DNA of 64,000 bases, taken from the IMG/VR virus record IMGVR_UViG_3300023174_000064, positions 32,001-96,000 of that record; one strand, 5' to 3'. This document shows positions 16,340 to 32,252 of this stretch, piece by piece. A program made the position numbers and the translations under genes. Positions within the stretch are counted from its first letter, which is position 1. Every line of letters begins with the position of its first letter. This DNA comes from a virus. The notes beneath the pieces were generated by a model, which made no database searches, had not been told where the DNA came from, and saw nothing but the letters and a program-made list of their open reading frames with translations.

Positions 16340-16747
16340 TTATTCAGGATTTACTTGAAGTCTGCCTTCTAATAATTTTTCAGAATACGTTACACCAATT
16401 AAAAGTTTTAAATCATAAAATAATTTTCCAACAGGTAATGAATTAGTAGTTTTTTTATCCAGTTCTATCAGAATACCACCATCTAAAGATGTAGTATTGT
16501 AATTAACATTAAGCCGAATACCACCGTATTCAGCTCCAGTACCAGGAGAACTGGCCCCAGTATACCCATATGTCACGCCATTTGTGGTGGCAAAAACTAA
16601 TGGGAAATCGGCGGTTTTATATCTTTCTATTTTAAGTTCAGCCGTATAGGAAGAAAGGTCTACACCAACATCAGAATCGGAAAGATACTGTATCCAAGCA
16701 TTTAAATTACAATTTTTATTTACATCAAGATCGTATTGTGCTGCCAT
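16340..16747 (-). CDS. virion structural beta-sandwich adaptor-like protein
   Basis: YDL.V, DLSSYTA...I, L..GK..YDL, LLEG.L.V.P pattern common in T4-like structural regions. Confidence 0.65.
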   Translation of the reverse strand: MAAQYDLDVNKNCNLNAWIQYLSDSDVGVDLSSYTAELKIERYKTADFPLVFATTNGVTYGYTGASSPGTGAEYGGIRLNVNYNTTSLDGGILIELDKKTTNSLPVGKLFYDLKLLIGVTYSEKLLEGRLQVNPE

Positions 16748-16761
16748 ACAATATATATCAT

Positions 16762-18006
16762 TTATCTGCTGACAGTTTTTCTTTCTTTAAACTTGGATTT
16801 AACAGCGTGTGCTGGAAAAAGAGCAGGTTTATGATCTTTTCTTTCGCTTTGCTTTTTGGCTTGTTCGTCCATCTGCCTAATAATTTCCATTTGATTAGTG
16901 TCTTCAAAGAACTTTAAGTACTGATTTAAATTGTTTTGTACCCGATCGATATCATTCTCTGGAAGACGATTTTCCATCAAAAGTTTCTTACAAGCAGCAT
17001 AACCCATATGGGCCTTTCCTGCGTAAAAAGCAGTCGAACCAATTTCGTCTAAAATTCCATATTTATAAACGTCCTCAGACACGAATAGGATATCTTCGGC
17101 TGGATATGGGATATCCATAGCCATCTTGGCGTATAAGAAACCTAGACGGGGATGACCCATCAGTCTGTAAATTTTAGCGATTTGGTGTAAAGGTTCAGCA
17201 CGAATTGGTCTGAGTTCCCAGGCTTCTAAAAATGCTTGTTGAATTTCTATCCATGGTTTATTTAAGAGACCACGGCACATACCAATACGATATGCTGCGT
17301 AATATTGTTCCTCTTCCCAACCACCCATCATTATTCGTTTTACGTAAGCTTGTTCTGCTTTTTCCCATTGTTGAGAATCAAAATAACTTTGAGCAAGATA
17401 GAACTGATAACGAATGTTATCTGGCTCGTCTACCAGAGCCTTTTCTAGCATTTCTGCGTCTCTTTTGTATTTTTCTACAGGTTCGATACCTACGTTACGG
17501 GCTCCCATTGTTCTAGCAACAATTCCGTATTGACCTTCAATTTTTGCAATTTTTGGTTGTTGGTTTTCAGTTGTTGGATATTCGTGAAGAATACCAACAT
17601 ACTTCCATCCGCGACCTGTTCGGAAGATTTGAGTTCTCCACCACGAGAAATCTTGACGACGGAACTGTAAAGCAAATGCGTCAAGTTCTTCTGAAATATT
17701 TGTTGGAAATTTAAATGTACCTTGAATAAAATCGTCAGCGTCAATCATCCACGCCCAATCAGCTTTACCATCACATAACTTTAAAGCTTCTGATCGATTA
17801 TGACCGAACGAAACCCACGGTTGTTCGTGTAGCTCTCCTGGAATACCCTTCTCTGCAAAATAAGACCGAATAAGATCTTGAGTGCCATCTGTTGATCCAG
17901 TATCAACAATTACCCAATAATCAATATACTTATGGACAGAATCCAGACACTCTTTAATAATGTGAGTTTCATTCTTTACGATCATTGACAGACATAATTT
18001 AGGCAT
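16762..18006 (-). CDS. GT2 glycosyltransferase with TPR repeats
   Basis: LCLSMIVKNE, VDTGSTDGT, FGHNR, IDADD (DxD), LHE; C-terminal FYLAQSY.D, RP.RAEPL TPR helices. Confidence 0.9.
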   Translation of the reverse strand: MPKLCLSMIVKNETHIIKECLDSVHKYIDYWVIVDTGSTDGTQDLIRSYFAEKGIPGELHEQPWVSFGHNRSEALKLCDGKADWAWMIDADDFIQGTFKFPTNISEELDAFALQFRRQDFSWWRTQIFRTGRGWKYVGILHEYPTTENQQPKIAKIEGQYGIVARTMGARNVGIEPVEKYKRDAEMLEKALVDEPDNIRYQFYLAQSYFDSQQWEKAEQAYVKRIMMGGWEEEQYYAAYRIGMCRGLLNKPWIEIQQAFLEAWELRPIRAEPLHQIAKIYRLMGHPRLGFLYAKMAMDIPYPAEDILFVSEDVYKYGILDEIGSTAFYAGKAHMGYAACKKLLMENRLPENDIDRVQNNLNQYLKFFEDTNQMEIIRQMDEQAKKQSERKDHKPALFPAHAVKSKFKERKTVSR

Positions 18007-18023
18007 AGTATAAATCTCCGTAC

Positions 18024-18959
18024 TTATTTATGTGCGCTTTGTAACCAATCTTTAAGTTGTACCTTACAATTCCATCCAAAATGTTGTTTTATCTTGCTGA
18101 TATCTGCCAAAGTTATTCTGGATTCTCCAATTCTTGGAGGAATGTTGATTCTGCTTCCACCAATCATATCAGCTATTTCATTCACTGAATGGTTAACTCC
18201 AGAACCTACATTATAAATTTGACCCCATTTCCAAATATTATATTCTATTTCATTGGTTATTAAATATTTTGGAGCTTGAAATTCTGCAGCAAGAATATTT
18301 GCTTGAACCACATCACTAACGTGAGTGAAATCTCTTCTTTGATTGCCATCACCAACAATAGTCATGGGTTCTCCTGCACTATTTTGTCTTAAAAAGATAC
18401 CAATAACAGGAGCGTATTGACCCTTCAATGGTTGTCGTTCACCGTAAACATTGAAATATCTAAAAATTACTGTTTCTAAACCAAATAAAGAAGAATACAT
18501 TTTACAAAATTCTTCTCCTCCGACTTTAGATACAGAGTATGGATTTAAACAATCATTAGACATGGTTTCTTTTAAAGGAGGAATATTCTTTAAACCATAC
18601 GCAGAAGAAGTAGAAGAGTACATGACCCTTTTTACACCAGCTTCTCTGGCGCACTGCAGCATTGTGCAAGTACCAACAACATTTGTTTTAGCTGCTTTAA
18701 TAGGATTTAAAATTGCTGGTTGAATTCTTGCTTCTGCAGCAAGGTGAAATACGTAATCTATCCCATCATATAATGGTCTAGTGGATTCGTAATCACATAC
18801 GTCTAATATATGATTATTTGTATCAGATCTCCAGTAAAAATGATCATGTACATCTGAAGATTCGTTATCAATTACGGTTACTTCGTAACCTTTTTTTACT
18901 AGCCCATCAACTAAATTTGATCCTATAAATCCAGCTCCACCAGTTACTAATGCTTTCAT
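18024..18959 (-). CDS. NAD-dependent nucleotide-sugar epimerase/dehydratase (extended SDR)
   Basis: VTGGAGFIGS, HLAA, YSVSK (YxxxK), RYFNVYG, RDFTHV. Confidence 0.93.
   Translation of the reverse strand: MKALVTGGAGFIGSNLVDGLVKKGYEVTVIDNESSDVHDHFYWRSDTNNHILDVCDYESTRPLYDGIDYVFHLAAEARIQPAILNPIKAAKTNVVGTCTMLQCAREAGVKRVMYSSTSSAYGLKNIPPLKETMSNDCLNPYSVSKVGGEEFCKMYSSLFGLETVIFRYFNVYGERQPLKGQYAPVIGIFLRQNSAGEPMTIVGDGNQRRDFTHVSDVVQANILAAEFQAPKYLITNEIEYNIWKWGQIYNVGSGVNHSVNEIADMIGGSRINIPPRIGESRITLADISKIKQHFGWNCKVQLKDWLQSAHK
18025..18032 (-). promoter_or_regulatory. putative late promoter upstream of GT2-TPR
   Basis: CATAAATA overlapping the epimerase stop, 18 nt upstream of ATG 18006 with SD GGAG between. 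Confidence 0.4.
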
Positions 18960-20053
18960 TATATTAATTCCTTTTCAACTCTTGCTAAAGCAGATCCAAC
19001 CACTTGATGCATGTCGTAATATTTATAATCTGCTAATCGACCTCCCATAATATATTTGGCAGAATTTACTCTATCCTTATATGATTTATATAATTTATTA
19101 TTTTTTTCATCATTAATTGGATAAAATTTTTCTTTTCCTGGTGTCCATTGTTCTGGATATTCTTTTGTTATTATTGTTTTATTTTGTTTACCAAATATAA
19201 AATGCTTGTGCTCTATAATTCTTGTGTATGGTACTGTTTCTTGTGTGTGATTAATTGCAGCGTTTCCTTGATAATCTGGAATATCGTGTTGTTCGTGTTC
19301 AAACTTTAAACTTCTCCATTCTAAATGTCCTAAATCACAATTAAAAAATTCATCTATAGGACCAGTATAAACAATCTTTCTTGCTGTATTATCAAAGTGT
19401 TGCTTATTAGCAAGATAATCTGTATTTAAACGAACCTCTATTCCATCTAATAATTTTTCAAAAATTGCAGTATAACCGTCTTTTGGTATACCTTGATAAC
19501 AGTCTTCAAAATAATTATCATCCATTGTCAGGCGGATAGGCAATCGTTTTATTATTGATGCTGGTAAATCTTTTGGTTCTTTACCCCATTGTTTTTTGGT
19601 GTAACCGTATATAAATTTTTTGTATATCTCTTCACCTACTTGAGATAATATCCATTCTTCTAAATTTTTTGGATTATCATTTTTAATTTTTACTTGTTCC
19701 AGCTTTTGTTTTGCTTCTTCTGGAGTTTTTACTTCCCATAATTGGTATAAAGTAAAAAGATTTATTGGAAAAGAATATAAATTATCGTTGTCTACTTTTG
19801 GTCTATAAACAAAATGGTTAAATTCTGTCCAACGATTCATGTAATCCCACACACGCTTATTGCTGGTGTGAAAGATATGAGGACCGTATTCGTGTATGTC
19901 TATACCTTCTATCTTTTTAGTATAACAATTTCCACCTATATGATTTCTTTTGTCTATAACCAGACATTTAAAACCAACATCAGTCAGTTCTCTGGCAAAT
20001 ATTGCTCCAAATAATCCAGAACCAACTATGATATAATCATGATATTCTTTCAT
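18959..20053 (-). CDS. glf: UDP-galactopyranose mutase
   Basis: IVGSGLFG, HIGGNCY, YGPHIFHT, YTKKQWG, YQGIP..GY, GRLADYKYYDMHQ. Confidence 0.96.
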   Translation of the reverse strand: MKEYHDYIIVGSGLFGAIFARELTDVGFKCLVIDKRNHIGGNCYTKKIEGIDIHEYGPHIFHTSNKRVWDYMNRWTEFNHFVYRPKVDNDNLYSFPINLFTLYQLWEVKTPEEAKQKLEQVKIKNDNPKNLEEWILSQVGEEIYKKFIYGYTKKQWGKEPKDLPASIIKRLPIRLTMDDNYFEDCYQGIPKDGYTAIFEKLLDGIEVRLNTDYLANKQHFDNTARKIVYTGPIDEFFNCDLGHLEWRSLKFEHEQHDIPDYQGNAAINHTQETVPYTRIIEHKHFIFGKQNKTIITKEYPEQWTPGKEKFYPINDEKNNKLYKSYKDRVNSAKYIMGGRLADYKYYDMHQVVGSALARVEKELI

Positions 20054-20104
20054 TAAATTTCTTTTATTAAACTAGTAATTTTTTAAATTTACTCATAACT
20101 ATAA

Positions 20105-21013
20105 TCATATTAAAAATCCACGTTCTATTAATTTTTTATTATTTAATTGAATTAATTTATCAAATTTACTGTTTGGCATTACTTTTTTATTTTTATTTGC
20201 ACTATTATGCCAATGCCAAGCAAAACAATCTAAAAACATATATTTGTCTGGGCAATCAATTTCAAACCACAATGCATCCCGTTGTTGACTCAATGGTTCA
20301 TCGATTATACTAATTAACCATTCTATATTAAAAAAAGAACCAGGTAAAATTGTATACTTGTATTTTTGATATACCCTAGCAAACATATCCTTTCCCCATA
20401 TAGTTGAACCACCACGAATAGGCATATTTGGTATTTCTTTAATTAGATACTGTGAAAATTCACTATTTTTCTTCAAAGAAAGAACTGTAGCACAAGCACC
20501 TTCAATTTCATAATCTACTGCCGAACCCCATTGATACATGTATTCTTGATCTAATAATGGTTTAAAATCTTTCAATAAAATAACATCCATATCAATCCAA
20601 ATCCCTCCATACTTATGGAGAGCAAGAATACGCAATAAATCACTTTGAAGATAGTGTAAATTGTCTTTGGCTAAAAGACGATCTAATTGACCTTCTAACA
20701 CTGTCCCTTTTGCTTCTTCTATTGGATCGTATATTTTAAATATAATTTGATCTTTGAATGGGGCCAGACATTCTAAATTTTCAATAGAATAATCCGACCA
20801 AAGTATTAAGTTTGTTTTTTGTAAATTTTGTGTAGCAAAATATGATTTGATGCACTCTAATTCTTTTTCTGTCTTTAATTCGCTATAAACATGAAAGTTT
20901 ACCTTTTCTTCGGGATAATCATAATCACTTTGATTTATATTTTTTAAATATTCATAACAATCTAGATAATTACGATATAAATTATAATGAGTTTCTTTTG
21001 AAATATTAATCAT
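20105..21013 (-). CDS. GT32-like glycosyltransferase (DxD sugar-binding region)
   Basis: SDLLRILALHKYGGIWIDMDVI. Confidence 0.85.
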   Translation of the reverse strand: MINISKETHYNLYRNYLDCYEYLKNINQSDYDYPEEKVNFHVYSELKTEKELECIKSYFATQNLQKTNLILWSDYSIENLECLAPFKDQIIFKIYDPIEEAKGTVLEGQLDRLLAKDNLHYLQSDLLRILALHKYGGIWIDMDVILLKDFKPLLDQEYMYQWGSAVDYEIEGACATVLSLKKNSEFSQYLIKEIPNMPIRGGSTIWGKDMFARVYQKYKYTILPGSFFNIEWLISIIDEPLSQQRDALWFEIDCPDKYMFLDCFAWHWHNSANKNKKVMPNSKFDKLIQLNNKKLIERGFLI

Positions 21014-21852
21014 ATATTTTCCATTATTTGTATAATACTATTATCTTCTTCATCGTATATTAAATTAATAGATTCTGCTTGAGGAAAATCTCTAAAATGA
21101 AATATTCTAATTTTATTCTTATCAGCTGCCATCAAAGTATCGTCTGGTCTATTAATTTTATCAGATAGAAGTTTTACGTTTTCTTTGTGGTAATCTTCTG
21201 TTGTTCTAATATCACCAGAATGAACGCTCGTTCCTATACTGTCACATCTATTGGCTAATACACAGATTTTTGTTCTTCCCTTAAATTCTCCAGTTTTATT
21301 AAATCTAGTATTTTCCGACCATCTTTGATTGCTTTGCAGATAAACTGGAACATTTTTTATAAACTTTTTTGATGGTGGTGGTTTCATATCAAACGAGGGA
21401 ATTAAAAATCTATCATATTTTTTAAAATTAATATCTGATAATACTTGTTTTATATAGTCGTCATCACAAGGAACTAAATATTCATCAACATCTAAAAAAA
21501 ATACTATATGAATATCGTCTTCGGATTCAATTGTTTGTTTTGTATTCCATTCGTTTTTAATAAAATGTAAACCATTATTATAACTTCTGCATATTCTTTG
21601 ATATAGATCTTCATTGCATGCGTAATCATTTCCGCTATTATAATAAATGTTAGTTACCTGAGTTTTATCAGAACATATTAATGATACACTAGTATCAGTG
21701 GATATAATATCATTTACTATTTTTTTAGTATTGTCTATAGACAAATCATCATAAATTAAAATTCTGTCTATGCCTATTTTTTTATGATATTTAATCCAAT
21801 CCAGAATACGATGTTCTTCGTTATAAATTTGTGCTATCAAACAGGTTTTCAT
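21010..21852 (-). CDS. GT2-like/GT92-like glycosyltransferase
   Basis: NE...I.DWIKYH..IGID.I.IYDD.S.D and FLDVDEYL. Confidence 0.8.
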   Translation of the reverse strand: MKTCLIAQIYNEEHRILDWIKYHKKIGIDRILIYDDLSIDNTKKIVNDIISTDTSVSLICSDKTQVTNIYYNSGNDYACNEDLYQRICRSYNNGLHFIKNEWNTKQTIESEDDIHIVFFLDVDEYLVPCDDDYIKQVLSDINFKKYDRFLIPSFDMKPPPSKKFIKNVPVYLQSNQRWSENTRFNKTGEFKGRTKICVLANRCDSIGTSVHSGDIRTTEDYHKENVKLLSDKINRPDDTLMAADKNKIRIFHFRDFPQAESINLIYDEEDNSIIQIMENI

Positions 21853-22394
21853 TTTTTATAAATCCAACATCCTTCTTGTGAAGTGATATTATCAAGTAAT
21901 TCATGAACAGCTTTATTAACTCCAGTCCAACCATAATCATGACCTGCTAAATAACCATTTTTCTTTATTTTTGGTAACCAACATTTTATATCTTCAAGCA
22001 CACATTCATACGAATGACAAGCATCAATAAAAACTACGTCTAAAGATTCGTCTTCAAATTGTTTACTTGCTTCTGTTGAATCCATTCTTAATGGAGTGAC
22101 TGCTGTTATAACCGGTTTTATATTTTCCATGAAAACATCATATAAAGTATTGGTTTTGATATAATGATCGTTTTTATGTTCTTCTGAACCTAACCAAGTA
22201 TCAACTGCATAAAATTTAATATTTTTTGCAGAATTTATAATTTCTACAGCAAGATATGCTGTACTTTTTCCTTTCCAACAACCAACTTCAACAATAGTTG
22301 AATCATTAGGTAAAGAAGAAACAAAAAAAGAATATAATTGTGGGTATTCAAACCAATTTTCACCAAAATTTAAATTTTTATAAATGTGTTCCAT
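21849..22394 (-). CDS. class I SAM methyltransferase (Methyltransf_24-like)
   Basis: VEVGCWKGKS, AVDTW, FIDACHSYE.V..DI..W, GGY-like GYLAGHDY. Confidence 0.88.
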   Translation of the reverse strand: MEHIYKNLNFGENWFEYPQLYSFFVSSLPNDSTIVEVGCWKGKSTAYLAVEIINSAKNIKFYAVDTWLGSEEHKNDHYIKTNTLYDVFMENIKPVITAVTPLRMDSTEASKQFEDESLDVVFIDACHSYECVLEDIKCWLPKIKKNGYLAGHDYGWTGVNKAVHELLDNITSQEGCWIYKK

Positions 22395-22406
22395 ATTTTT
22401 CCTTAA

Positions 22407-23063
22407 TTAAATTTTCTTATTAATAAAAAGAGCATCACCGGCCAAATATGGGGTATATGGTTTATCTGTAGGATCTTCGTAATATTCTGCCATTTCAAAA
22501 CCAAATTCTCGTAAAACGGAAGATATATCTTGAAGTGTCGGACTACCAGGACGCCAATTTTTATCTATAACAACTTCAGTTATTATGTATTTTGTATTAT
22601 TTAATATTTTTTGATTCTTGAATGCTTCGTATTCTGCTCCTTCAATATCAGAGCAAATTAAATCTATTGTTTTAATATTTCTAATATCACATTCATAATC
22701 TAGTGTAGTGGTTTCTATTTGTTGCTTTATAGTTGGTAAATATTTGTGTTTGTAGATTGAAGAACTTCCTAATATTTCTGGACTATTTGAATCTATAGAC
22801 CAATAATCAACATGACCTCTGCTCGAATATAATGCTTTAGGAACAAATTCAATTTTTGTATTGTTTTTAAGTTTATTAATTTTTTCCTGACAAATAGATA
22901 TTAGCTGTGGATTACATTCAAAAGATATAAATGTATTTGGTTCATAATAAGAAATAATAGGTTCTATAAAAGAAGCATCATTAGTACCCAATTCAAAAAT
23001 AGTATTTATTTTTTCTTTTGAAATGTGTTTTGTAAATTGTTCAAATAAATATGGTATGTTCAC
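22407..23063 (-). CDS. FkbM-family methyltransferase
   Basis: IFELG, SFECNP, TTLD, IDLICSDIEGAE, GDALF; GTG start with SD AAGGA. Confidence 0.85.
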   Translation of the reverse strand: MNIPYLFEQFTKHISKEKINTIFELGTNDASFIEPIISYYEPNTFISFECNPQLISICQEKINKLKNNTKIEFVPKALYSSRGHVDYWSIDSNSPEILGSSSIYKHKYLPTIKQQIETTTLDYECDIRNIKTIDLICSDIEGAEYEAFKNQKILNNTKYIITEVVIDKNWRPGSPTLQDISSVLREFGFEMAEYYEDPTDKPYTPYLAGDALFINKKI

Positions 23064-23076
23064 TTAAATTGATCCT

Positions 23077-23544
23077 TTATTGATTTTTAATTTTTGATAT
23101 AATATCACTGGTAGAAAAATTTTTTATTTTAGGAAAAAAAATTAACTCTTTTGTGAATTCTTTTCCTATTATGTTTTTGTTTTTATATTCTTCGCCTATT
23201 ACCATTTTTGATGGATTTAAATCCGATATAATATTTGCCAATTCTTCATCAGTGTCGTATACAAAAACTCCATCTACATATTTTAGAGAAAGAAGCATAG
23301 AAATTCTAGAAATTTCATCATTGATTGGTCTATCTTTTCCTTTGTTAGTTTTTACTCTAAAATCTGAATCTAAACCAACAAATACTAAACAATTTTGTAA
23401 ACTGTTACTATATTCTCTACACTTAGATAATAATTCTAAATGTCCTAAATGTAGGACATCATAACAACCATTAGTCCATACAACATCGGTATAATGTGGT
23501 AAAGGACTCCAATCGCCAGCTTGTCCATAATAATTAATGCTCAT
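23077..23544 (-). CDS. nucleotidyltransferase (RfaE domain II / TagD-like cytidylyltransferase)
   Basis: TNGCYDVLHLGH (HxGH), VGLDSD, KG..RPIN, STS.II. Confidence 0.9.
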   Translation of the reverse strand: MSINYYGQAGDWSPLPHYTDVVWTNGCYDVLHLGHLELLSKCREYSNSLQNCLVFVGLDSDFRVKTNKGKDRPINDEISRISMLLSLKYVDGVFVYDTDEELANIISDLNPSKMVIGEEYKNKNIIGKEFTKELIFFPKIKNFSTSDIISKIKNQ

Positions 23545-23553
23545 GATATACTT

Positions 23554-24390
23554 TTATATATTATTTATTTGAGTTTTCCACCACGATATTTTTAATTTAT
23601 TAAAATTAAATTTTGTAGTTTGCATTTCTTCATATTTCTTATATAAAAACTCTTCAGTTATTTCTGACCATTGTTCAATAAAAACAATAGGAAGATCTTT
23701 AAAAAATCTATATGCTGGTTCGTATCGTACGATTGGAATCGTTTTAGAATACAAAGCTTCCCACAATCTATGTGTATCAACTCCATTACCACGAGGACAA
23801 AGAATAAATTTATGTTGTACCATATCATGCAAAAAAGATGATATATTAGTTTTATCATTATTATCGGAACAAATATTAAACCAAGTTTCGCCTTTTTTCT
23901 TTTTATCTAAAAATGCATGAAATAATGGTTGCCTTTCTGGTGGATGTGTTTCTTGTCTAAAATTAACATACAATAAATTATTTCTTTTATTATTTGTGTT
24001 TATTTTTTTAATATCATTTATTTTTGTGGTTATATTACAATACGAATTAGCTATTCCTAATGGGATAGGTATTATATCAGGATGTTCGTAAGTACTATTA
24101 ATTGCATACCAATTTGAAACATTTGATGGTTTGTATTTTACAATATCAGCGTTTATTGCAATATCAGAATTATGTGTTATAACATTTATATTTGTATATT
24201 GTTTATTATTATTTAAAATATAAAATAATTCATTTAAAGCGTATTCAGTTTTTGAAAATATTGTTATATTTGATTTTAAATTTAAATTTATACTTTGATC
24301 AAATGCTGTTGGTTTGTAATAATAATCACAAATAGATTTAAACGTCTCTCCCGAAACAAAATCATCTAATATATCATTTTTAAAATTCAT
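23554..24390 (-). CDS. exostosin/GT47-like glycosyltransferase
   Basis: THNSD, PIPLG, HKFILCPRGNGVDTHRLWEALY. Confidence 0.75.
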   Translation of the reverse strand: MNFKNDILDDFVSGETFKSICDYYYKPTAFDQSINLNLKSNITIFSKTEYALNELFYILNNNKQYTNINVITHNSDIAINADIVKYKPSNVSNWYAINSTYEHPDIIPIPLGIANSYCNITTKINDIKKINTNNKRNNLLYVNFRQETHPPERQPLFHAFLDKKKKGETWFNICSDNNDKTNISSFLHDMVQHKFILCPRGNGVDTHRLWEALYSKTIPIVRYEPAYRFFKDLPIVFIEQWSEITEEFLYKKYEEMQTTKFNFNKLKISWWKTQINNI

Positions 24391-24400
24391 ATAATTTGTT

Positions 24401-25072
24401 TTAATATAAAATTAATTTCCAGCTATTCTTTAATTTAAAAATTCCATTAGCTTTTCTAATATTATGAAATATACCAGATTTTACATTTAAAGATTGGGCT
24501 AAATGTATAAAAGAGCTGTCTATACAATGTACTTCTTGTGCTTCTTCAATTAGGCCACACCAATCTAATAAACAATCAGTTAATGGTGTAACAAATATTT
24601 TTTTAATATTATTATCAATCTTTAAATTAAATTTACAATCAGATCCTTCATTATGAATAAGAATAAAAGGTTCATTTTTTAAACCTAATTTATTTTTAAT
24701 TGTGTTTTCTCTTTTTACATTTCTATTTATTTTAAAATATTTCCATCTAATATCAAATGGTATTCCATTAGTTTCATAGAAAGAAACATCCCAATCATCT
24801 CTTGTTTTATGAAACCCAATAGAAATTATTTTATTACATTGTTTAATTTCTGGTAAACTATAAACGTCTTGATCATTGTTGACTTCTAGAGGCACTATTT
24901 TTGACTCATCATCATACATTTTTTTTACTGTAAAAATATTATTTTTTTTTGTTGGTAGATATAAAATATCTGGTTTTATTTGTTCGTTTATAAATCGAAC
25001 GAGGCCATTGCAAATTAAATGATCCCCTAAACCTAAATGATGATGGAGTAAAATGATATTTTTATTGTCCAT
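24401..25072 (-). CDS. putative GT-B glycosyltransferase (GT9-like motifs)
   Basis: HLGLGDHLI near the N-terminus, EA.EVHCIDSSF near the C-terminus. Confidence 0.55.
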   Translation of the reverse strand: MDNKNIILLHHHLGLGDHLICNGLVRFINEQIKPDILYLPTKKNNIFTVKKMYDDESKIVPLEVNNDQDVYSLPEIKQCNKIISIGFHKTRDDWDVSFYETNGIPFDIRWKYFKINRNVKRENTIKNKLGLKNEPFILIHNEGSDCKFNLKIDNNIKKIFVTPLTDCLLDWCGLIEEAQEVHCIDSSFIHLAQSLNVKSGIFHNIRKANGIFKLKNSWKLILY

Positions 25073-25793
25073 ACCATTTATTATTAAATAATTTTATAGA
25101 GTTTATTTGATCTTTTGGTATGCTAAGATGTGCCAATAAATCGTTTCTCACAAATATCATGTTACCGGTATGACACACGCAGCTATATCCTTTATTGATT
25201 CCTACTTTTAAAGAATCCATAAAACTATAACCTTTAGATTTATTATCTTGTTCTGCTGGAGCTAAACCACTATTAATCTCTATTATTACAATTTTAGGGG
25301 ACAGTTTATGTTCTTCCCAAATTTCATGATCATAAGAATCTATGTCTATATTTAAAATATCATAATTTGATGAAAATTGTTTAACTTGAGCTAAGGATTC
25401 GTCTAATGTTTTTATTTCTGCATTAAAATAAAATATATCACAATTTTCATGCATCGCTTTACAACCAGCATAACCTGCATCAACTTTAGCTTTATCTGAT
25501 ATTGCAGTAAAATGATTTAAAGCTATTACATTTGGATATACTTGTGGTAGATCTTGTAGTGATAGGTATTTTGGTTCACATGCCCCACCAACTAAGGAAG
25601 GCTCAATCATAACAGCATGACATCCTTGATTAATAAGATGCCGTACGTTACTGTATGCGATACCATCGTATGCACCAACATCTACAACCCACATATCAGG
25701 AATATTTAATCCTAATTCCTTGATTAGTTGTTCTAAGATTCCGTCTTCACCATTTTGACTGTATTTATTTTTTATAAAAGTATAATAATGCAT
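25062..25793 (-). CDS. FkbM-like methyltransferase
   Basis: YSQNGEDGIL, VDVGAYDG...SN, IEP, IDIDSYD, GNMIFVR; start placed at ATG 25793 (TAATG coupling). Confidence 0.8.
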   Translation of the reverse strand: MHYYTFIKNKYSQNGEDGILEQLIKELGLNIPDMWVVDVGAYDGIAYSNVRHLINQGCHAVMIEPSLVGGACEPKYLSLQDLPQVYPNVIALNHFTAISDKAKVDAGYAGCKAMHENCDIFYFNAEIKTLDESLAQVKQFSSNYDILNIDIDSYDHEIWEEHKLSPKIVIIEINSGLAPAEQDNKSKGYSFMDSLKVGINKGYSCVCHTGNMIFVRNDLLAHLSIPKDQINSIKLFNNKWYGQ

Positions 25794-26509
25794 TATATTA
25801 TCCACATATTTTCTGATTTAAACCACTCTATTTTTTGTTGAGTTCCTACACAAAAATTAGCATGAATTATTGTTTGTCCTAATCTTTCTTTTGGTCCATT
25901 ATTTGAAAAATATAAATGTCCATTTGTTGCAAATGTAGTTTCAAGTGTATTTAATTTTATATCACCTCTTGCTAAAATATGATTTAAAATTGCTTGATCA
26001 TGCCATTCACCAGAATCTGTTTTTATCTGTGCTAAATTATTTGCTATTTGTATAGCTTCTTGAAATAGTTGTTTTATTGTATTATTGTTTTTTAATAACA
26101 TTACTCCAGCACACCACCTTGATCCAACCGGTCTATCAGTTTGGCATATCATATCATGAGTATCGTTTTCAATTTGTTTTAATTTTTCTGTTGGGTCTTT
26201 TGCAAAAAATACATCAGAATCAATAAAAAATATATTTTCATTTATTTCATTTAAAGTGTCTAATATGCACTTCAATTTAATAAACATTATTAATTTAAAT
26301 TCTTGTGTTCCATAATCCCAATAATTTGATTTAAATTTATAAGACGTTTTTACAGTTACATTTTTTATATTTTTTTCTATAAAAAAATTTTCACTTTCAT
26401 CATCAAGACAAAACATAATCATTTCTTCGTCTGTAAATTTTCGAAGAGATAATATCATGTTGTATGACAATTCTAAAGAACCATTATTTGTAAAGGATAC
26501 ATATTTCAT
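25793..26509 (-). CDS. nucleotide-diphospho-sugar transferase (GT77-like)
   Basis: FIDSDVFF.KDP, CAG.M, HDQAILN, HANFC.G..K. Confidence 0.82.
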   Translation of the reverse strand: MKYVSFTNNGSLELSYNMILSLRKFTDEEMIMFCLDDESENFFIEKNIKNVTVKTSYKFKSNYWDYGTQEFKLIMFIKLKCILDTLNEINENIFFIDSDVFFAKDPTEKLKQIENDTHDMICQTDRPVGSRWCAGVMLLKNNNTIKQLFQEAIQIANNLAQIKTDSGEWHDQAILNHILARGDIKLNTLETTFATNGHLYFSNNGPKERLGQTIIHANFCVGTQQKIEWFKSENMWII

Positions 26510-26511
26510 AA

Positions 26512-27342
26512 TTAAGAACACTCGTTGAATATATTTATATACTTTTGTTTATCTATTTCAGTGATATATCTTTGTTTTCCAATATATTCATTATCATGAA
26601 ATATACCACAAGACGAACAACAATTTAAATGACAATGACCTTTACCATTCTCACCAAACCAGTGTGGATATTTTATTGGATCATTTTCTATACCACTATG
26701 CCATTCTGGAAATTTAATATTCCACCAACCTTGTCCTCTTAATCGTGGAATAGGAAATGGGTGTTTTATTTCATTTCTGTACATGTTGCCAAACCAATCA
26801 TCATGAACATAAGCTTTATCAATTATTCTTGGATAAATTTCTGATCGTAAAAATTTTTGATCTATTCCGTGATTATTATCGATTTCTTTTCTGGGATATT
26901 CTTGTATTAGATCCATCATTTCCGTTATTACGCCATTTCTGCATCCCCATGCGCCACCACAAATAGGCCAACCGTGTTGACAACAATCTCTTAGAATGTG
27001 AAAATCTTTATCACTATTTAACCATTCGTCTACTGCTGCTTTGTCGCGTATTGATAATCTAGAATCTGTATCTCTAGAAATCATAACATCCACGCTTGGA
27101 TCTGATGCTGGATAAAATCTCCAAAACATACCATTCCAGCTAACATCTTCATCCATCATAAACACTTCTGTATTTTTTCTGCCAGTTAATTCTTTTATTG
27201 CTATTTTTGGAACTGTTGGTGCAACATAATAACGACAAGTCCACCCTTCCCATTCTTTTTCTGCTATATCGGCATTTAAAATACCACCCATAATATAAAA
27301 TGGATTTTTACCCCACATAGAAAATGATATTACTTTTTTCAT
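26512..27342 (-). CDS. uncharacterised DxD protein (SRDTDSR family), probable GT-A glycosyltransferase
   Basis: ISFSMWG, MFWRF, SRDTDSR, FHILRD, GGAWG, DQ.FL; start at ATG 27342 (ATGA overlap). Confidence 0.6.
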   Translation of the reverse strand: MKKVISFSMWGKNPFYIMGGILNADIAEKEWEGWTCRYYVAPTVPKIAIKELTGRKNTEVFMMDEDVSWNGMFWRFYPASDPSVDVMISRDTDSRLSIRDKAAVDEWLNSDKDFHILRDCCQHGWPICGGAWGCRNGVITEMMDLIQEYPRKEIDNNHGIDQKFLRSEIYPRIIDKAYVHDDWFGNMYRNEIKHPFPIPRLRGQGWWNIKFPEWHSGIENDPIKYPHWFGENGKGHCHLNCCSSCGIFHDNEYIGKQRYITEIDKQKYINIFNECS

Positions 27343-28181
27343 TGATTTACTCTTTTTAAAATTTGATGACATACTGCATCTAATGTAAAATATTCAGGAT
27401 AAACTTGTTTTATCCGGTTTAACATGTTGTTGTGCTTTTCGTCTGAAATAGACTGTAATATGTTTTTTAAATTGCATATTTGGTTTTGTTTTATTATTAC
27501 ACAAAATTCAGACCAATCCAATTCATCAGACCAAGGAAGGTAGTGATCGTCACTTACATATACAGGAACTGCTCCTATTTGCATTGTTTCATATAATCTA
27601 AAACTACTTTTACCGTATCCTCTGGGGCATAATACAAATTTACTTCTGTTTGTTACATCTATAAAATGGTTTAGTTTATCTTCCGATACTGTTATATCCC
27701 AACCACCTTGTGTGAATAAAAAATCACTGTCTTGTTTGAACGTATTATATAATTCGTTTCGTATTCCATGCGTGGCAGAACCAACAAAAGAACAAAATAT
27801 GTCTTTTGTTTTTGGTTCTGGAACACGAATAGCAGAGCATATTAATGGAATAGGAATACAATTTGGTCCAGAATAATTTCCACCAGCAGAAAATACTTTG
27901 GTGTTTGGTGGTAATTTTTGAGCTGGAGCATCATCGTGTTGACTAACAGTATAGTAAGACAATTCAGGATTTAATGAATTTAAAAATGCTTGTAAGATAT
28001 TCCAAGGCATTCCGTTATTATAATAAGAAGTCCATAAAACTGGAATAAAAAATTTCTTAGTGTTTGGTTGATTTTTTATCAAAAACTCCATAAAATAATC
28101 TTCCAAATATAATCCTTGATGGTAAGGAGGATATGTTGGATAATTTGGTTTAGGTGCAAAAAAATCCAAAGTTATGTTCAT
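27339..28181 (-). CDS. exostosin/GT47-like glycosyltransferase
   Basis: SFVGS, SKFVLCPRGYGKSSFRLYETMQIGAVPVYVSD...LP. Confidence 0.85.
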   Translation of the reverse strand: MNITLDFFAPKPNYPTYPPYHQGLYLEDYFMEFLIKNQPNTKKFFIPVLWTSYYNNGMPWNILQAFLNSLNPELSYYTVSQHDDAPAQKLPPNTKVFSAGGNYSGPNCIPIPLICSAIRVPEPKTKDIFCSFVGSATHGIRNELYNTFKQDSDFLFTQGGWDITVSEDKLNHFIDVTNRSKFVLCPRGYGKSSFRLYETMQIGAVPVYVSDDHYLPWSDELDWSEFCVIIKQNQICNLKNILQSISDEKHNNMLNRIKQVYPEYFTLDAVCHQILKRVNQ

Positions 28182-28876
28182 GAACAAGTTCCTTTTTTAA
28201 ATTGTTCTCTATGATATGGATTTAATTGATAATCATTTCCGTTTTCATCAATACCAAAAGGTTCACCTATAAAATAATTATGTGGATCTTGTTCTCTTGA
28301 CATAGAAATAGGATGACCGCCAAGACGAGTACAGGTATCATGTATGTACACGTTTGTTTCTGGATTTAATAATGGACAAACATAAGACCATAAAAATTGT
28401 TGATCTACATTCTTGATATCGTTAAATATTGGTGTGGTTTCATAATGTTTTATCATTTCATTTATTGGTAATTTTACATTTTTAGCTCCCCAAGCTCCAC
28501 CCAACATAGGAACATCGTGACAGGGATGATCTCGTATTATATGAAACGATCTATTACTATTCAACCATTCATTTACGGCATATACTTCTCTTGGTCCGAT
28601 TCTAGAATCTGTATCTCTTGATAAAAATATGTTAATATCTTCTTGTAGTGGTAAGAATCTATAAGTCATTATATGTGAAGATCCTGGTCTATCTAAAACA
28701 ACAACTTCAGAATGTTTTTTTAATAAATTAATTTTTGATTCGTTAAAATCATTAGAAACATAAAATCTACAAATAAATCCTGGATAATAACGAGCAACCA
28801 GATCTATATTTTTCAATGCACCTTTAAAATAAAGATCATTTTCTCCCCAAAGACAATAACTTACAATATTTTTCAT
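28178..28876 (-). CDS. uncharacterised DxD protein (SRDTDSR family), paralog of 26512-27342
   Basis: VSYCLWG, YRFLP, SRDTDSR, FHIIRDHP.H, GGAWG, DQQFL. Confidence 0.6.
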   Translation of the reverse strand: MKNIVSYCLWGENDLYFKGALKNIDLVARYYPGFICRFYVSNDFNESKINLLKKHSEVVVLDRPGSSHIMTYRFLPLQEDINIFLSRDTDSRIGPREVYAVNEWLNSNRSFHIIRDHPCHDVPMLGGAWGAKNVKLPINEMIKHYETTPIFNDIKNVDQQFLWSYVCPLLNPETNVYIHDTCTRLGGHPISMSREQDPHNYFIGEPFGIDENGNDYQLNPYHREQFKKGTCS

Positions 28877-30372
28877 CGTTGTGTTTCGGTTATTTCTGGA
28901 TCGTAAAGATAATGATATAATATCTGTTCGATATTTGATTCTGTTTTAATTAATCCAGATTTAAACAATTTATCAGAATAATCACTATCTTCTGATAAAT
29001 TTATTTCTGGAAACATTATTTCTCTTGCCATACTAGTTTTTACTGGATTTAAATGATTTATAGGTCTGTATTGAATACCATCTTTTCTAAAATTACCACC
29101 ATTTTTATTGGCATGGCTGAATTGCATAACTAGTTGATTTTGAATATAATAATTACCATAAAATCCAACACAATCCACACCTTTTTCTAATTCTGGTAAA
29201 ATAGCAGTAAAATAATTATGACTAACCATATCATCATCGTCTATAAAGCAAACATATTTTCCTCTTGCTGTCATCAATACTTCATTTCTTTTTTCGCCTA
29301 CTTTTTTTTGTTTTTTATCTTTATTAACAAATATTTCTATTTTATGTGCTTGATCTGCAGGAATTATTTGTTTTAAATGATTTAAAAGTCTTGTTAAAAA
29401 ATGCTCTCTTCCTTCTATAGTAAGAATACCAACAGTCAATAATGTATCAGATACATTTATTTTTTGTTTGATTGTTTGTTCAACTCGTTTAGAAAAACTC
29501 TGTGCGTATTCTTTTGCCTTTTCAAAATTGTCCTCTATTTTAAATTTTAATTTTTTGTAAGTGGTTTCATCAATATTATTAACAATATGGACAAGCTCTT
29601 CTATTGAATTAAAAGTAAATAAACCACCAGTATCAAAATATTCTCCAATATTAGGACAACCAAAATATATTGGGATTGTTTTTGTGATTAAACAATCTAT
29701 TAATTTTTCAGAAAAATAATTTGGTTGAATACAGTTTTCCACAATAATAGAAAATTGTGAATAAAATAAATTATCCTTTTCTCCATTAGGAATATGACCA
29801 TCATGAAGAGTATCAGAGAATCCATTTACGTTAGTTGGAGATCTAGCACTAGACCAAAATACCGTAGGTTTATTTAAATTATTTTTATTGTTCCAGATGT
29901 CTCGACGCATCTCATAGCCAATCATACCACGATGTCCTGTAGCCATGAAGGATATTTGATATTTTTTATCTTTGTATTTTTCTTCTAAACCTTCTTCATA
30001 AACGCCTAAAGAATCTGGATGTTGTAATTCTATTTTATTTAACCAAGTACCACCGTAAAGAAATAAAGTAGAATTATCACAACTATTAAGTATTTCTTCA
30101 TCTGTACACATAATAAGATCATATTCGGATGCATGATCTATGATATCATTGATTCGTTCTTTATTTGGCGAACAAACAGGTTCGCTGGTTACAATTAAAA
30201 CTTTATATGCATTTAAATTTTTAAAAGGAACTTTATATCCTTGAGTGTTTGGAAAACGATATAAAGGAAATTTATTATTACCAAAACGAGCAGTATGTAT
30301 TTCTACTGGTCGATCAAAATCCATTAGATCCGAGCCTAACAGATAATCTGCATTAAAAATTGTTGGTTTCAT
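28873..30372 (-). CDS. GT10-like + GT2 fusion glycosyltransferase
   Basis: N-half FSIIVENC...NYFSEKLIDC....IPIYFG (GT10 motif); C-half G.KRN...ARGKYVCFIDDDD...SED (GT2). Confidence 0.85.
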   Translation of the reverse strand: MKPTIFNADYLLGSDLMDFDRPVEIHTARFGNNKFPLYRFPNTQGYKVPFKNLNAYKVLIVTSEPVCSPNKERINDIIDHASEYDLIMCTDEEILNSCDNSTLFLYGGTWLNKIELQHPDSLGVYEEGLEEKYKDKKYQISFMATGHRGMIGYEMRRDIWNNKNNLNKPTVFWSSARSPTNVNGFSDTLHDGHIPNGEKDNLFYSQFSIIVENCIQPNYFSEKLIDCLITKTIPIYFGCPNIGEYFDTGGLFTFNSIEELVHIVNNIDETTYKKLKFKIEDNFEKAKEYAQSFSKRVEQTIKQKINVSDTLLTVGILTIEGREHFLTRLLNHLKQIIPADQAHKIEIFVNKDKKQKKVGEKRNEVLMTARGKYVCFIDDDDMVSHNYFTAILPELEKGVDCVGFYGNYYIQNQLVMQFSHANKNGGNFRKDGIQYRPINHLNPVKTSMAREIMFPEINLSEDSDYSDKLFKSGLIKTESNIEQILYHYLYDPEITETQR

Positions 30373-31231
30373 TATTAATCATCTCAAAAAGATCATCGTC
30401 TGCTAATTTTAATTTATTAAGAGCTTTGTAATTGTGCTCTATCGCTTTGCTTTTATTTATGTAGGTTTCTTCGTTTAAAGAATCAAATATTTTTTTTTCT
30501 TTATCTAATTCTAACCAAATAATTCCTTCTGGATCAAAAATATCAGGAAGTTTTTTAGTTCCACAATATACAGGAATTGTTCCTGTAGCAAAACAGTCTG
30601 TTAATTTTTCTGTGTAATAAGAATCGTATATACCATTCTCAACAACTACACTAAACATATAATCCTTTAAACCATCAATTTTAGTGTTCCAAGGATTTCT
30701 AGGATCATTTACTGTTCTGCTGGTTCCATGAGCTCCTCCAAATACATCAAAACCACAATCTAATGCTATTCGAGCAATTTGATGCCGATATACGTGGCCT
30801 TCTGTTAGTTTTTTGGGAGAGCAAAACATAGAGCATTGTTTTTTCTTGGGATAAACACTCCATTTATCTTTTGGAATCCACGGATAATTGCTACCATTTT
30901 GGCAATAAACAAAATTTGGATGTAACTGTAGAAGAGCACTGTCACAAGTAAAAATTTTATTATAATAACTATTAAACAATACTTTATAATTGTTTATTAA
31001 AAAATCATAAACATTTGGAACTATAAATCTAGATTCGCATATCCAACCAAATCTTTTTTCTTTGGGTTTAGAAAAATCTGGATTTATTAACAGACCTAAA
31101 TCTAAATGAACATCACAAATACCTTCAGTGTTTGACCAATCGAACTTATTTGGTTTTATGTTTGAACAAGAAGAATATTGTGGTTCGAATGGTAAAGCAA
31201 TACCTTTTACTTTGTACCGGGACTCTGCCAT
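30353..31231 (-). CDS. GT10 (fucosyltransferase-like) glycosyltransferase
   Basis: YMFSVVVEN....YYTEKLTDCFATGTIPVYCG. Confidence 0.85.
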   Translation of the reverse strand: MAESRYKVKGIALPFEPQYSSCSNIKPNKFDWSNTEGICDVHLDLGLLINPDFSKPKEKRFGWICESRFIVPNVYDFLINNYKVLFNSYYNKIFTCDSALLQLHPNFVYCQNGSNYPWIPKDKWSVYPKKKQCSMFCSPKKLTEGHVYRHQIARIALDCGFDVFGGAHGTSRTVNDPRNPWNTKIDGLKDYMFSVVVENGIYDSYYTEKLTDCFATGTIPVYCGTKKLPDIFDPEGIIWLELDKEKKIFDSLNEETYINKSKAIEHNYKALNKLKLADDDLFEMINNETNNF

Positions 31232-31845
31232 GCTATTAAATCCTCACTCATTCCTAATTTTTTAAGTGCTTCTTTTTTAGAATCTACGTCAGCCAATCCC
31301 ATTACTATTACACTAGCATCGTTTTCTTGACCGGGCCAAACACAATATTCTGGTCCTATAAATTTTATTTTAAATCCATCTTTTTGATAAAAAGAATGCA
31401 AAATGCCAATAAGAGCTTCATGATCAAACCATTGACCATTATTTGCCATTTGCCTTGCCATAAATGTCCAATGTTGAAGAAATTCTAATACTTTAGAATT
31501 AAAATCCAAATAAATTGGAGATGCTTTTGCTGCTTGTAATTTATTTGTTGAGCAAGACACAGCTACATCAGTATTACCTACAAACTGGTCAAATACATCT
31601 AATGATTTGCGAACATCAGAATCAATATCTAACCAAACAACTGGTTTTTGTTTTTCTATTAATAATTGGTATATGAACTGAGGCTTACTTAGACAATTTT
31701 TTTGATATGTTCCTAATGATTGTTTTTTTCTAATATCATGAGGAATATTCAATTCTCTTAGTTGTTTTGTAAGACGATGAGAATGGTCACTATAATACGT
31801 TTTATTGTCTATATCACTAAAAAAAGAAATCACTTCGGTTTGCAT
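31207..31845 (-). CDS. GT-A fold glycosyltransferase-like protein
   Basis: KPQFI, VVWLDIDS (DxD), DHEAL. Confidence 0.65.
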   Translation of the reverse strand: MQTEVISFFSDIDNKTYYSDHSHRLTKQLRELNIPHDIRKKQSLGTYQKNCLSKPQFIYQLLIEKQKPVVWLDIDSDVRKSLDVFDQFVGNTDVAVSCSTNKLQAAKASPIYLDFNSKVLEFLQHWTFMARQMANNGQWFDHEALIGILHSFYQKDGFKIKFIGPEYCVWPGQENDASVIVMGLADVDSKKEALKKLGMSEDLIAWQSPGTK

Positions 31846-31847
31846 AA

Positions 31848-32252
31848 TTAAGAGTTTCCTATATGGTATTTAGGCACCAGTTGCCATTCTTTCTTTTCTT
31901 TATGGGGAATAATTTTTAGTTGAGCCAAAGAAATAATTGGTTCTTTGTACTCGTCTGGATCCACAGCTTCTACTAGTCCCCATTCTACCAGAAGCTTTAC
32001 AATCATGTTACGTCGGCCAAGATCGGTATCGTCTATATCTGTTTCTAGTCCGTCTAGATCAAGCATCTCTTTGAAATGCATGATGGCGTATCTGCCGCGT
32101 TTGTGAAGAATATGACAGCTTTGATATAGTTTTTTTTCTTTTTTGGATGACACTCCCATTCGGGTAAGAGTCTCCTTCACCTTGAGAAAATCGTCTTTAG
32201 ATTTTAATTTGATTTCAACTCCAAGGCCATCAAAAATATCTTCGTTTTCCAT
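31848..32252 (-). CDS. regA: translational repressor RegA
   Basis: DDFLKVKETLTRMG, LYQSCHILHK.GRY.I.HFKE, W.LVPKY.IG. Confidence 0.97.
   Translation of the reverse strand: MENEDIFDGLGVEIKLKSKDDFLKVKETLTRMGVSSKKEKKLYQSCHILHKRGRYAIMHFKEMLDLDGLETDIDDTDLGRRNMIVKLLVEWGLVEAVDPDEYKEPIISLAQLKIIPHKEKKEWQLVPKYHIGNS

Follow-up and report, generated by a model that had tools for sequence, protein, structure and literature searches.

A replaceable cassette of glycan genes in a conserved three-gene frame of an uncultured freshwater T4-like phage

The window analysed here, of 64,000 nucleotides (nt), comes from the IMG/VR virus contig IMGVR_UViG_3300023174_000064 (146 kb, estimated to be 80% complete), of which it covers bases 32001-96000. 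The contig belongs to an uncultured freshwater T4-like phage. Between regA and the gene for a 135-residue (aa) protein that precedes the fibre and tailspike genes, positions 16762-31845 of the window hold an island of 18 minus-strand open reading frames (ORFs). We found that this island consists of a 15-gene swappable cassette inside a conserved frame of three genes, 31207, 30353 and 16762 (genes are referred to by their first coordinate). The last of these encodes a glycosyltransferase (GT) in which a GT2 domain is joined to tetratricopeptide repeats (GT2-TPR), and it is the starting point for a possible protein acceptor of the glycan.

Gene content and layout of the island

Pfam assignments were made with the curated cut-offs, and matches below them are flagged as weak. 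From regA onwards, the genes of the island are as follows.

31848-32252, minus strand: regA; Pfam Translat_reg, E 5e-41
31207-31845, minus strand: frame gene 1, 212 aa, no Pfam family; starts 2 nt past the regA stop and is in 6 of 6 full islands at 70-85% identity
30353-31231, minus strand: frame gene 2, GT10-like glycosyltransferase; Pfam PF00852, 26.7 bits against a cut-off of 23.9; in 6 of 6 islands
18030-30370, minus strand: replaceable cassette of 15 genes and 12.3 kb, delimited by breaks of nucleotide homology with relatives
28873-30372, minus strand: two-domain glycosyltransferase with a GT10-like N half and a GT2 C half; Pfam GT2 E 2.3e-7, GT10 E 0.008; PHROG glycosyltransferase E 3e-34
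28178-28876, minus strand: family-less candidate GT-A protein; paralogue of 26512 (37% identity, E 2e-39)
27339-28187, minus strand: GT47-like glycosyltransferase; Pfam PF03016, 74.5 bits
26512-27372, minus strand: family-less candidate GT-A protein; nearest ESM Atlas clusters 94-100% viral
25793-26521, minus strand: GT77-type nucleotide-diphospho-sugar transferase; Pfam PF03407, 70.5 bits
25062-25805, minus strand: possible FkbM-type methyltransferase, weak; Pfam E 0.0022 and TIGR01444 E 4.8e-5, both under cut-offs
24401-25072, minus strand: family-less protein with a GT9-like lead; nearest ESM Atlas clusters viral; GT9 score 0.93, 173 shared features
23554-24390, minus strand: GT47-like glycosyltransferase; Pfam PF03016, 39.6 bits against a cut-off of 33.4
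23077-23544, minus strand: sugar-phosphate or glycerol-phosphate nucleotidyltransferase; Pfam CTP_transf_like
22407-23063, minus strand: FkbM-family methyltransferase; Pfam PF05050, 43.7 bits
21849-22394, minus strand: Methyltransf_24 methyltransferase; Pfam 78.1 bits; 53% identity to 32686-33246
21010-21852, minus strand: GT92/GT2_4-like glycosyltransferase; Pfam PF01697, 43.6 bits
20105-21013, minus strand: GT32-type DXD glycosyltransferase (Gly_transf_sug); Pfam PF04488, 41.5 bits
18959-20053, minus strand: UDP-galactopyranose mutase Glf; Pfam GLF E 1.3e-77; 52-58% identity to bacterial Glf
18024-18959, minus strand: GalE-like short-chain dehydrogenase/reductase (SDR), an epimerase/dehydratase; Pfam Epimerase E 8.5e-56; best NCBIfam match galE, under cut-off
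16762-18006, minus strand: frame gene 3, GT2 + TPR glycosyltransferase, 414 aa; Pfam GT2 and TPR

The minus strand carries every gene between 9944 and 35930. From regA to the 135-aa gene there are 18 junctions, ten of them overlaps of 1-34 nt; the rest are spaced by 2-17 nt, except for a 51-nt gap at 20054-20104, the only sizeable intergenic gap in the island. An earlier sequence-only reading of this stretch had described a dense glycan island of about 17 genes from regA to the fibres, and the packing and gene count confirm it. The donor genes that it had named, Glf, an SDR epimerase and a nucleotidyltransferase, were recovered as Pfam GLF, Epimerase and CTP_transf_like proteins. The nucleotidyltransferase, 23077, is RfaE-II-like: it matches NCBIfam RfaE domain II (heptose-1-phosphate adenylyltransferase) at E 6e-28 and a TagD-like family at E 2e-11, both under their cut-offs.

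The same reading had counted about 11 transferase-like genes. Eight genes have Pfam support as glycosyltransferases, and four others stand as candidates that lack a family. Its two GT2, two GT47, GT77-like, GT32 and GT92-like assignments are all above Pfam cut-offs. As for the two GT10 proteins it proposed, 30353 passes the cut-off, and the second corresponds to the N-terminal half of 28873, a weak match (E 0.008) with 35% identity to 30353; the GT9-like label of 24401 has the ESM Atlas lead as its sole source. Three methyltransferases had also been proposed, of which 21849 and 22407 are firm and 25062 is weak, its FkbM match falling under the cut-off. A PHROGs label of 'DNA methyltransferase' for 32686-33246 (minus strand, between gp44 and gp62) was rejected in favour of a Methyltransf_24/TylF-like small-molecule O-methyltransferase. 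Since this protein is 53% identical to cassette methyltransferase 21849-22394, it makes a fourth sugar-type methyltransferase, inside the replication module.

The four candidates, 24401, 26512, 28178 and 31207, have no family in Pfam (E up to 5), PHROGs or NCBIfam. The 31207 protein carries an invariant DxD motif (D73, D75) and a weak hhalign match to the GT77-like 25793 (probability 39%, E 3e-4), and a PDB profile search with its family gave no match. The paralogues 26512 and 28178 belong to virus-only clusters; for 26512 the nearest named families in the ESM Atlas are GT8 and Nucleotid_trans (score 0.92), a weak lead, and the structure of 24401 also resembles DUF6165 proteins of giant viruses. 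A search with 27339 found 39 viral loci and a single locus in genome contigs; the latter is a 15,998-bp contig that is in IMG/VR too.

Cassette, frame and membrane-protein content

The frame became apparent on comparison with relatives. In 21 IMG/VR contigs GT2-TPR is 76-87% identical, and the 10 kb upstream of it are nearly wholly different among contigs. In every contig that reaches far enough, a homologue of the 135-aa gene comes next after GT2-TPR, with fibre genes behind it, and two further contigs, found via the 135-aa protein, carry the same pair, giving 23 contigs in total. The distance from regA down to GT2-TPR is 12-14 kb in five long relatives. All six full islands have a member of the 31207 family and a GT10-like gene beside regA and GT2-TPR at the far end. 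An SDR gene often adjoins GT2-TPR as well in these six, and nearly everything else between the frame genes occurs in a single genome only.

Nucleotide homology with the five relatives (71-82%) runs from gp62 and regA to about 30370-30475 and begins again at 18005-18030, at the start of GT2-TPR. Between 18030 and 30370 we found no nucleotide similarity to the five relatives, all of which have both flanks at 71-82% identity. Because homology breaks at about 30370 and about 18030, the intervening 12.3-kb cassette is replaceable. Its GC content is 28.4%, compared with 38.6% for GT2-TPR and 37.7% for the remainder of the window. The single 17-gene unit of the sequence-only reading is therefore replaced by a cassette within a frame.

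The 259 ORFs of the 21 cassettes, when clustered, give 144 groups at 60% identity and 112 at 30%. Their commonest Pfam families all belong to sugar chemistry: SDR epimerases and dehydratases, thiamine pyrophosphate (TPP) enzymes, sugar C-methyltransferases, Methyltransf_24, FkbM, GT10, GT2, GT25 and DUF5672. In one relative's 88.8-kb contig, GT2-TPR is broken over three frames (4738-5981 of the extracted locus), either a frameshifted pseudogene or an assembly error.

We screened the island proteins for transmembrane helices with a Kyte-Doolittle window of 19 residues and a threshold of 1.6. No helix was found in the 18 proteins, the highest window being 1.29, and no Wzx, Wzy, ABC-transporter or phosphoglycosyl-transferase family matched in the island. 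This bears out the earlier observation that no flippase, polymerase, lipid-carrier transferase or membrane protein was visible; membrane anchors had then been named as the sign that would favour a host-surface role, and none is predicted in the 18 ORFs. The island has the nucleotide-sugar genes and several GTs of an O-antigen or capsule locus, in a variable locus between conserved flanks, and it has none of the membrane initiating transferase, flippase or transporter, and polymerase that make up a Wzx/Wzy or ABC-type locus.

The relatives gave the same result. Just 10 of the 259 ORFs contained a marginal hydrophobic window, and of seven of these that were tested, six are soluble enzymes (including SIS, NAD-synthase-like, E1 dehydrogenase, DHQ-synthase-like and C-methyltransferase proteins) and one has no family match. 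An ORF with at least four transmembrane segments was found in 0 of 21 cassettes and 0 of 5 full islands, compared with 65 of 77 (84%) bacterial Glf loci, within 8 kb. The control comprised 80 bacterial loci centred on homologues of the island Glf, of which 77 were usable; they are mostly streptococcal, so that the loci are not independent, and the contrast is nonetheless large.

The GT2-TPR enzyme and its bacterial relatives

We next consider the frame gene at the downstream end of the cassette. A sequence search of the PDB with GT2-TPR (phmmer and profile) returned only ThuS (7msk), GmaR and SunS in addition to TPR proteins, and no other GT2 enzyme. The matches to ThuS, SunS and GmaR range from E 1.7e-11 (ThuS) to 3e-10 at 16-19% identity. 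The best NCBIfam match is the SunS family TIGR04195, with 47.3 bits and E 1.3e-12. As this score is far under the cut-off of 350 bits, GT2-TPR is a distant relative and not a member of the SunS family.

Structure prediction gave a concordant picture. The AlphaFold2 model (pLDDT 86) has a GT-A domain at residues 1-170 and eleven helices at about 176-390. In a Foldseek search with this model, ThuS and SunS take the first six places, aligned over about 400 columns at E about 1e-14, and TarS follows at 1e-6. The DxD motif is preserved (IDADD). Thus Pfam, the model and Foldseek all place a GT-A/GT2 domain before a TPR domain, which is the SunS-type architecture. The Listeria flagellin enzyme GmaR and the bacteriocin enzymes SunS and ThuS (PDB 7msn, 7msk) are the sole solved structures found by sequence, and ThuS and SunS the best full-length fold matches. 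They differ from GT2-TPR in their low identity and in their setting: among the island and flanking genes there is no glycocin precursor peptide, SunT-type transporter, disulfide oxidoreductase or immunity gene. The family of GT2-TPR is abundant, with 5,397 proteins at E <=1e-5, the best 120 of which are all at least 62% identical.

A profile of the phage GT2-TPR family identified 415 bacterial loci with 38-48% identity over about 360 residues, in Actinomycetota, Burkholderiales, Chlamydiota, Verrucomicrobiota, Acidobacteriota, Bacteroidota and other taxa. We found that a collagen-like protein is the only recurrent neighbour of these homologues. Neighbours were scored as collagen-like when at least 15 uninterrupted G-X-Y triplets occurred in an open frame within 8 kb, a criterion that is independent of gene calling. 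Such a run was present in 34 of 74 bacterial GT2-TPR loci, at a median distance of 1.1 kb, and in 0 of the 77 Glf-centred control loci. Threonine occupies 64% of Y positions in the bacterial runs. The neighbours match Pfam Collagen, together with BclA_C (under cut-off) or a phage tail collar domain, and are accompanied by GT2, GT10 and GT25 genes, including GT2-GT10 fusions that resemble 28873. We considered whether the runs were a PE_PGRS artefact and rejected this; it is true of a few glycine-rich Mycobacterium loci, and most runs are regular GAT/GPT repeats that match Pfam Collagen. The pairing of GT2-TPR with a (GAT/GPT)n collagen-like protein is itself widespread in bacteria (Chlamydiota, Verrucomicrobiota, Acidobacteriota, Burkholderiales, Actinomycetota and Bacteroidota) and apparently uncharacterised; the collagen-like partner frequently ends in a BclA_C-like or phage-tail-collar domain.

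A characterised enzyme has the same association. In C. difficile the gene for SgtA, a 358-aa protein made up of a GT-A domain and four TPRs, stands directly upstream of bclA3, and the enzyme puts the first beta-O-GlcNAc on threonines of the BclA3 collagen repeats (PMC7157674). Compared with the published description of SgtA, the phage GT2-TPR has the same GT-A plus TPR layout and a similar size, and both are soluble. As with SgtA and BclA3, a GT2-TPR gene lies near a collagen-like gene in the phage lineage and in the 34 bacterial loci; the collagen-like gene is about 10 kb downstream of GT2-TPR in this phage and 1.9-10 kb downstream in relatives. There are also differences. BclA-type repeats are rich in threonine, whereas the phage fibre repeats are of GPQ/GEK type, and unlike SgtA the phage enzyme is viral and heads a variable cassette of 12 kb that encodes many enzymes. 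By its sequence, GT2-TPR shares the predicted architecture of ThuS, SunS, GmaR and SgtA, enzymes that all glycosylate polypeptides, and by analogy with them it is a candidate starter of a glycan on a polypeptide.

Candidate acceptors, rival explanations and the phage lineage

Two proteins encoded downstream of the island bear on the possible acceptor.

16340-16747, minus strand: conserved 135-aa Ig-like protein; AlphaFold2 pLDDT 91; 42-89% identity in all relatives
2316-6602, minus strand: collagen-like tail fibre, 1428 aa, candidate acceptor; matches PHROG tail-fibre and collagen-like minor-tail families

Among PDB structures, the 135-aa model comes closest to small tail-tip proteins from phages T5 and DT57C, with modest TM values of 0.56-0.58. 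We take these tail-tip proteins to be collar proteins that hold side fibres, and the model suggests that the 135-aa protein is probably a fibre-collar component of the virion. Downstream of its gene follow a 2041-aa multi-domain protein, two tailspike-like genes and the 1428-aa collagen-like fibre; in several relatives a homologue of this fibre comes directly after the 135-aa gene. The fibre contains 59 uninterrupted G-X-Y triplets at residues 31-207. It is the leading candidate for the acceptor.

Another protein, of 475 aa, is encoded 13 kb upstream of the window start (G000:C1:18963-20390). It contains a (PT)12 tract, 16 GDK-type triplets and more PT-rich sequence, and it has one hydrophobic segment (residues 262-280). 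From its composition it is a plausible second candidate for O-glycosylation, outside the window. A tblastn search with it gave no match among cultured phages.

The motif TATAAATA lies 23-26 nt ahead of the start of gp23 and of the adjacent 333-aa gene (45008-46009). It also stands 5-32 nt before eleven other genes, and its position before all of these indicates that it is probably the late promoter of the phage. Thirteen of its 21 genome copies are 5-44 nt upstream of coding-strand gene starts. Several copies are just 5-11 nt from the ATG, which would mean very short or absent leaders on late mRNAs. The motif also stands 21 nt before the start of the 475-aa gene and 11 nt ahead of 25793. GT2-TPR has cATAAATA 19 nt ahead of its start, with similar motifs in about a third of the relatives, and [C/A]TAAATA precedes the 135-aa gene in most relatives. 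Sigma-70-like sites occurred at the chance rate (105 found, 113 expected), and terminator-like sites were uninformative.

Together, the conserved polypeptide-type GT, the link to collagen-like proteins and the soluble swappable cassette suggest that the phage probably glycosylates its own fibre proteins. As a complete explanation, in which a virion protein, most likely a fibre component, carries a glycan that varies from strain to strain, we give it about an even chance for this uncultured phage known from its genes alone. GT2-TPR would place the first sugar on the protein, and the conserved GT10-like and DxD proteins would add a common core. The cassette of this phage would supply UDP-galactofuranose (UDP-Galf), through the GalE-like SDR and Glf, and activated heptose or glycerol-phosphate; seven to ten cassette transferases would lengthen the chain and two or three methyltransferases would cap it. 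Recombination in the conserved flanks would swap cassettes and so give each strain a different virion glycan. The Galf-containing, O-methylated product envisaged in the sequence-only reading fits this cassette only, as relatives encode other sugars.

Several observations weigh against this explanation. GT2-TPR is tied to the cassette solely by its position and by the conservation of the frame. Soluble GTs normally also act on lipid-linked intermediates, and a host carrier and export system could serve them. Similar islands in pelagimyophages have been read as modifying the host O-chain (PMC7029224). The collagen repeats of the phage are of GPQ/GEK type; across the lineage about 11% of triplets have threonine at Y, and in the 59-triplet run threonine occurs just twice, once at X and once at Y. 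Because threonine is rare in these repeats, SgtA-type sites are scarce, and the true acceptor residue or protein may differ. A scan of the fibre genes in the window for mucin-like Ser/Thr tracts found none. Furthermore, the 5' end of the island, 2 nt past regA, follows the replication genes and may therefore be transcribed before the late genes. The AT-rich cassette contains about as many motifs like TATAAATA (three on the coding strand) as its AT content would give by chance, and we therefore make no claim on expression timing from them.

The coupling to regA and the replication genes would also suit remodelling of the host envelope, in which the soluble enzymes act on host lipid-linked intermediates, with the initiating transferase, flippase, polymerase and ligase provided by the host. 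Lipopolysaccharide (LPS), capsule or another surface glycan would then be altered, for example to block superinfection or to keep progeny from adsorbing to debris. The gene content resembles that of O-antigen and capsule loci (Glf, SDR, RfaE-like, many GTs and methyltransferases), in which the GTs are usually soluble; Glf is of the ordinary bacterial type, at 52-58% identity to bacterial Glf; hypervariability suits a receptor arms race; and this is the published reading of the pelagimyophage host recognition cluster (PMC7029224). We nevertheless regard it as unlikely, though to be taken seriously. Despite the many different sugars encoded, no protein with four or more transmembrane segments appears in the 21 cassettes and 5 islands, compared with 65 of the 77 Glf loci, and a given Wzx or Wzy is usually specific for its own repeat unit. 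The SunS/ThuS/SgtA-like polypeptide glycosyltransferase in the frame would be left unexplained, several cassette families are virus-restricted rather than host-like, and the phage seroconversion systems known to us use membrane proteins. The earlier view of a cytoplasmic acceptor, a virion protein rather than DNA, is in this respect backed in its direction by the comparative evidence, with host remodelling still a rival.

If GT2-TPR and the cassette had two unrelated functions, GT2-TPR would put a simple sugar on the fibre and the cassette would be an independent accessory at a recombination hot spot, with another glycan target. This seems to us distinctly improbable. The core-like GC content of GT2-TPR (38.6%, against 28.4% in the cassette), its conservation at about the level of structural genes and the frequent presence of just one or two further GTs beside bacterial homologues are in its favour, as is the known plasticity of T4-like genomes where the replication module meets the fibre module (PMC7029224). 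However, the opposite end of the cassette is also framed by transferase-like genes, 31207 and 30353, in 6 of 6 islands; each cassette examined encodes sugar chemistry and not mixed accessory genes; and the bacterial GT2-TPR/collagen loci too contain GT10, GT2 and GT25 partners, GT2-GT10 fusions among them. We see a still smaller chance that the acceptor is a host surface protein (flagellin, pilin or S-layer), a secreted glycopeptide or another soluble molecule. Among the nearest solved relatives, GmaR does modify flagellin, and SunS and ThuS modify bacteriocin peptides, but the window lacks the usual glycocin partners (precursor peptide, leader-peptidase transporter and thiol-disulfide oxidoreductase), the SunS-family score is 47 bits against a cut-off of 350, and in bacterial genomes the association is with collagen-like proteins.

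It is very improbable that modified bases in the phage DNA carry the sugars. Gene clusters of DNA-glycosylating phages are known, and DNA glycosylation needs a hydroxylated base made either by a thymidylate-synthase homologue (5hmC, 5hmU, 5hoC) or by a methyltransferase with a TET-like dioxygenase (10.1101/2023.12.21.572611; PMC13326640). Glf is also found in T4-like Rhizobium and Aeromonas phages, which would be compatible with such a role. In the phage contig and two relatives (65-85% complete) we found no match to PF00303 (thymidylate-synthase family) or PF12851, the second negative being weak, as the Tet_JBP (PF12851) control matched no genome. The DNA glycans described have one to three sugars or polyarabinose, unlike the product of about ten transferases, and the anchor enzyme is of the polypeptide type.

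We suggest, more tentatively than the protein acceptor itself, that the island is a viral 'serotype' locus, in which an SgtA-like starter and two core transferases are kept and a 12-kb cassette is swapped from a largely virus-specific pool. If so, each strain would show a different complex glycan on its collagen-like fibres or collar, here with Galf and O-methyl sugars. The virus particle would then carry a diversity system like that of O-antigens, with consequences for adsorption, for host range, or for how hosts or grazers recognise it.

The island has counterparts in the host recognition clusters and LPS-like islands of pelagimyophages and cyanomyophages (PMC7029224; PMC3037559), which likewise belong to aquatic T4-like phages, are non-syntenic and combine fibre genes with GTs and sugar-nucleotide genes. 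A hypervariable, non-syntenic fibre and GT island in a T4-like phage, the description of a host recognition cluster (PMC7029224), is also what we see here. The position differs, being from regA to the fibres in this phage and from VrlC to gp14 in PMC7029224. In our island, furthermore, the cassette is sharply bounded and its three-gene frame contains a polypeptide-type GT, whereas the authors of PMC7029224 preferred to explain theirs by a change to the host O-chain. Glycosylated virions are known from mycobacteriophages (Freeman et al. 2023, as cited in PMC12582341 and PMC11256854), and large DNA viruses such as chloroviruses and giant viruses glycosylate their own particles (PMC4691112). In these systems soluble viral transferases, sometimes with methyltransferases, modify the virus's own structural proteins in the cytoplasm, and their genes lie near structural genes. 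Their hosts and virus families differ from those of this phage, and mycobacteriophages have one to four transferase genes, compared with the 18-gene locus with a swappable cassette seen here at the level of genes.

Thus hypervariable GT-rich islands in aquatic T4-like phages (PMC7029224; PMC3037559) and virion glycosylation by phage enzymes in mycobacteriophages are already described. New here are the sharp cassette with its three-gene frame, the SunS/ThuS/SgtA-like anchor and the controlled bacterial link to collagen that points to a fibre acceptor. The usual annotation of GT-rich islands in aquatic T4-like phages is 'LPS genes' with a role in altering the host surface; here the comparative evidence favours a protein acceptor instead. 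If this is true, complex strain-variable virion glycosylation would extend past mycobacteriophages and giant viruses to abundant freshwater myoviruses, and the variable cassette would be a new axis of phage diversity beside receptor-binding proteins.

The sequence-only reading had pointed to LPS-like islands of some T4-like cyanophages. The gp23 gene (43529-44962) encodes a protein with at most 57% identity to cyanomyophage gp23, gp46 is about 44% identical to that of Methylophilales phage Melnitz and likewise to those of cyanophages, and psbA was not found in the three contigs searched (the phage contig and two relatives). Given also the freshwater source of the DNA, nothing marks the phage as a cyanophage and that label was rejected; by the same features the lineage differs from pelagimyophages and cyanomyophages.

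DNA of the cassette is present in lake and other freshwater metagenomes from several studies. Contigs of an independent lake sample carry the same cassette at 2-4% divergence (96-98% identity), and in that sample about 1.36 kb of extra DNA, with room for one gene, is inserted at the 20054-20104 gap. No RNA run was among the sequencing runs that contain the sequence. In one run the regA flank had a greater summed contig depth than the cassette; since regions cannot be ranked by contig depth, this value was not used.

Among cultured phages, megablast with the island gave no matches, and tblastn with GT2-TPR found no T4-like relative. The nearest cultured-phage homologue of GT2-TPR, at 37% identity, is in Tunturiibacter phage Tunturi_5, a jumbo phage of 308 kb with an Acidobacteriota host, where it adjoins a nucleotidyltransferase gene and lies about 4 kb from tail-fibre genes. 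Homologues also occur in huge phages of 635-735 kb, one of which has a GT47-like gene too.

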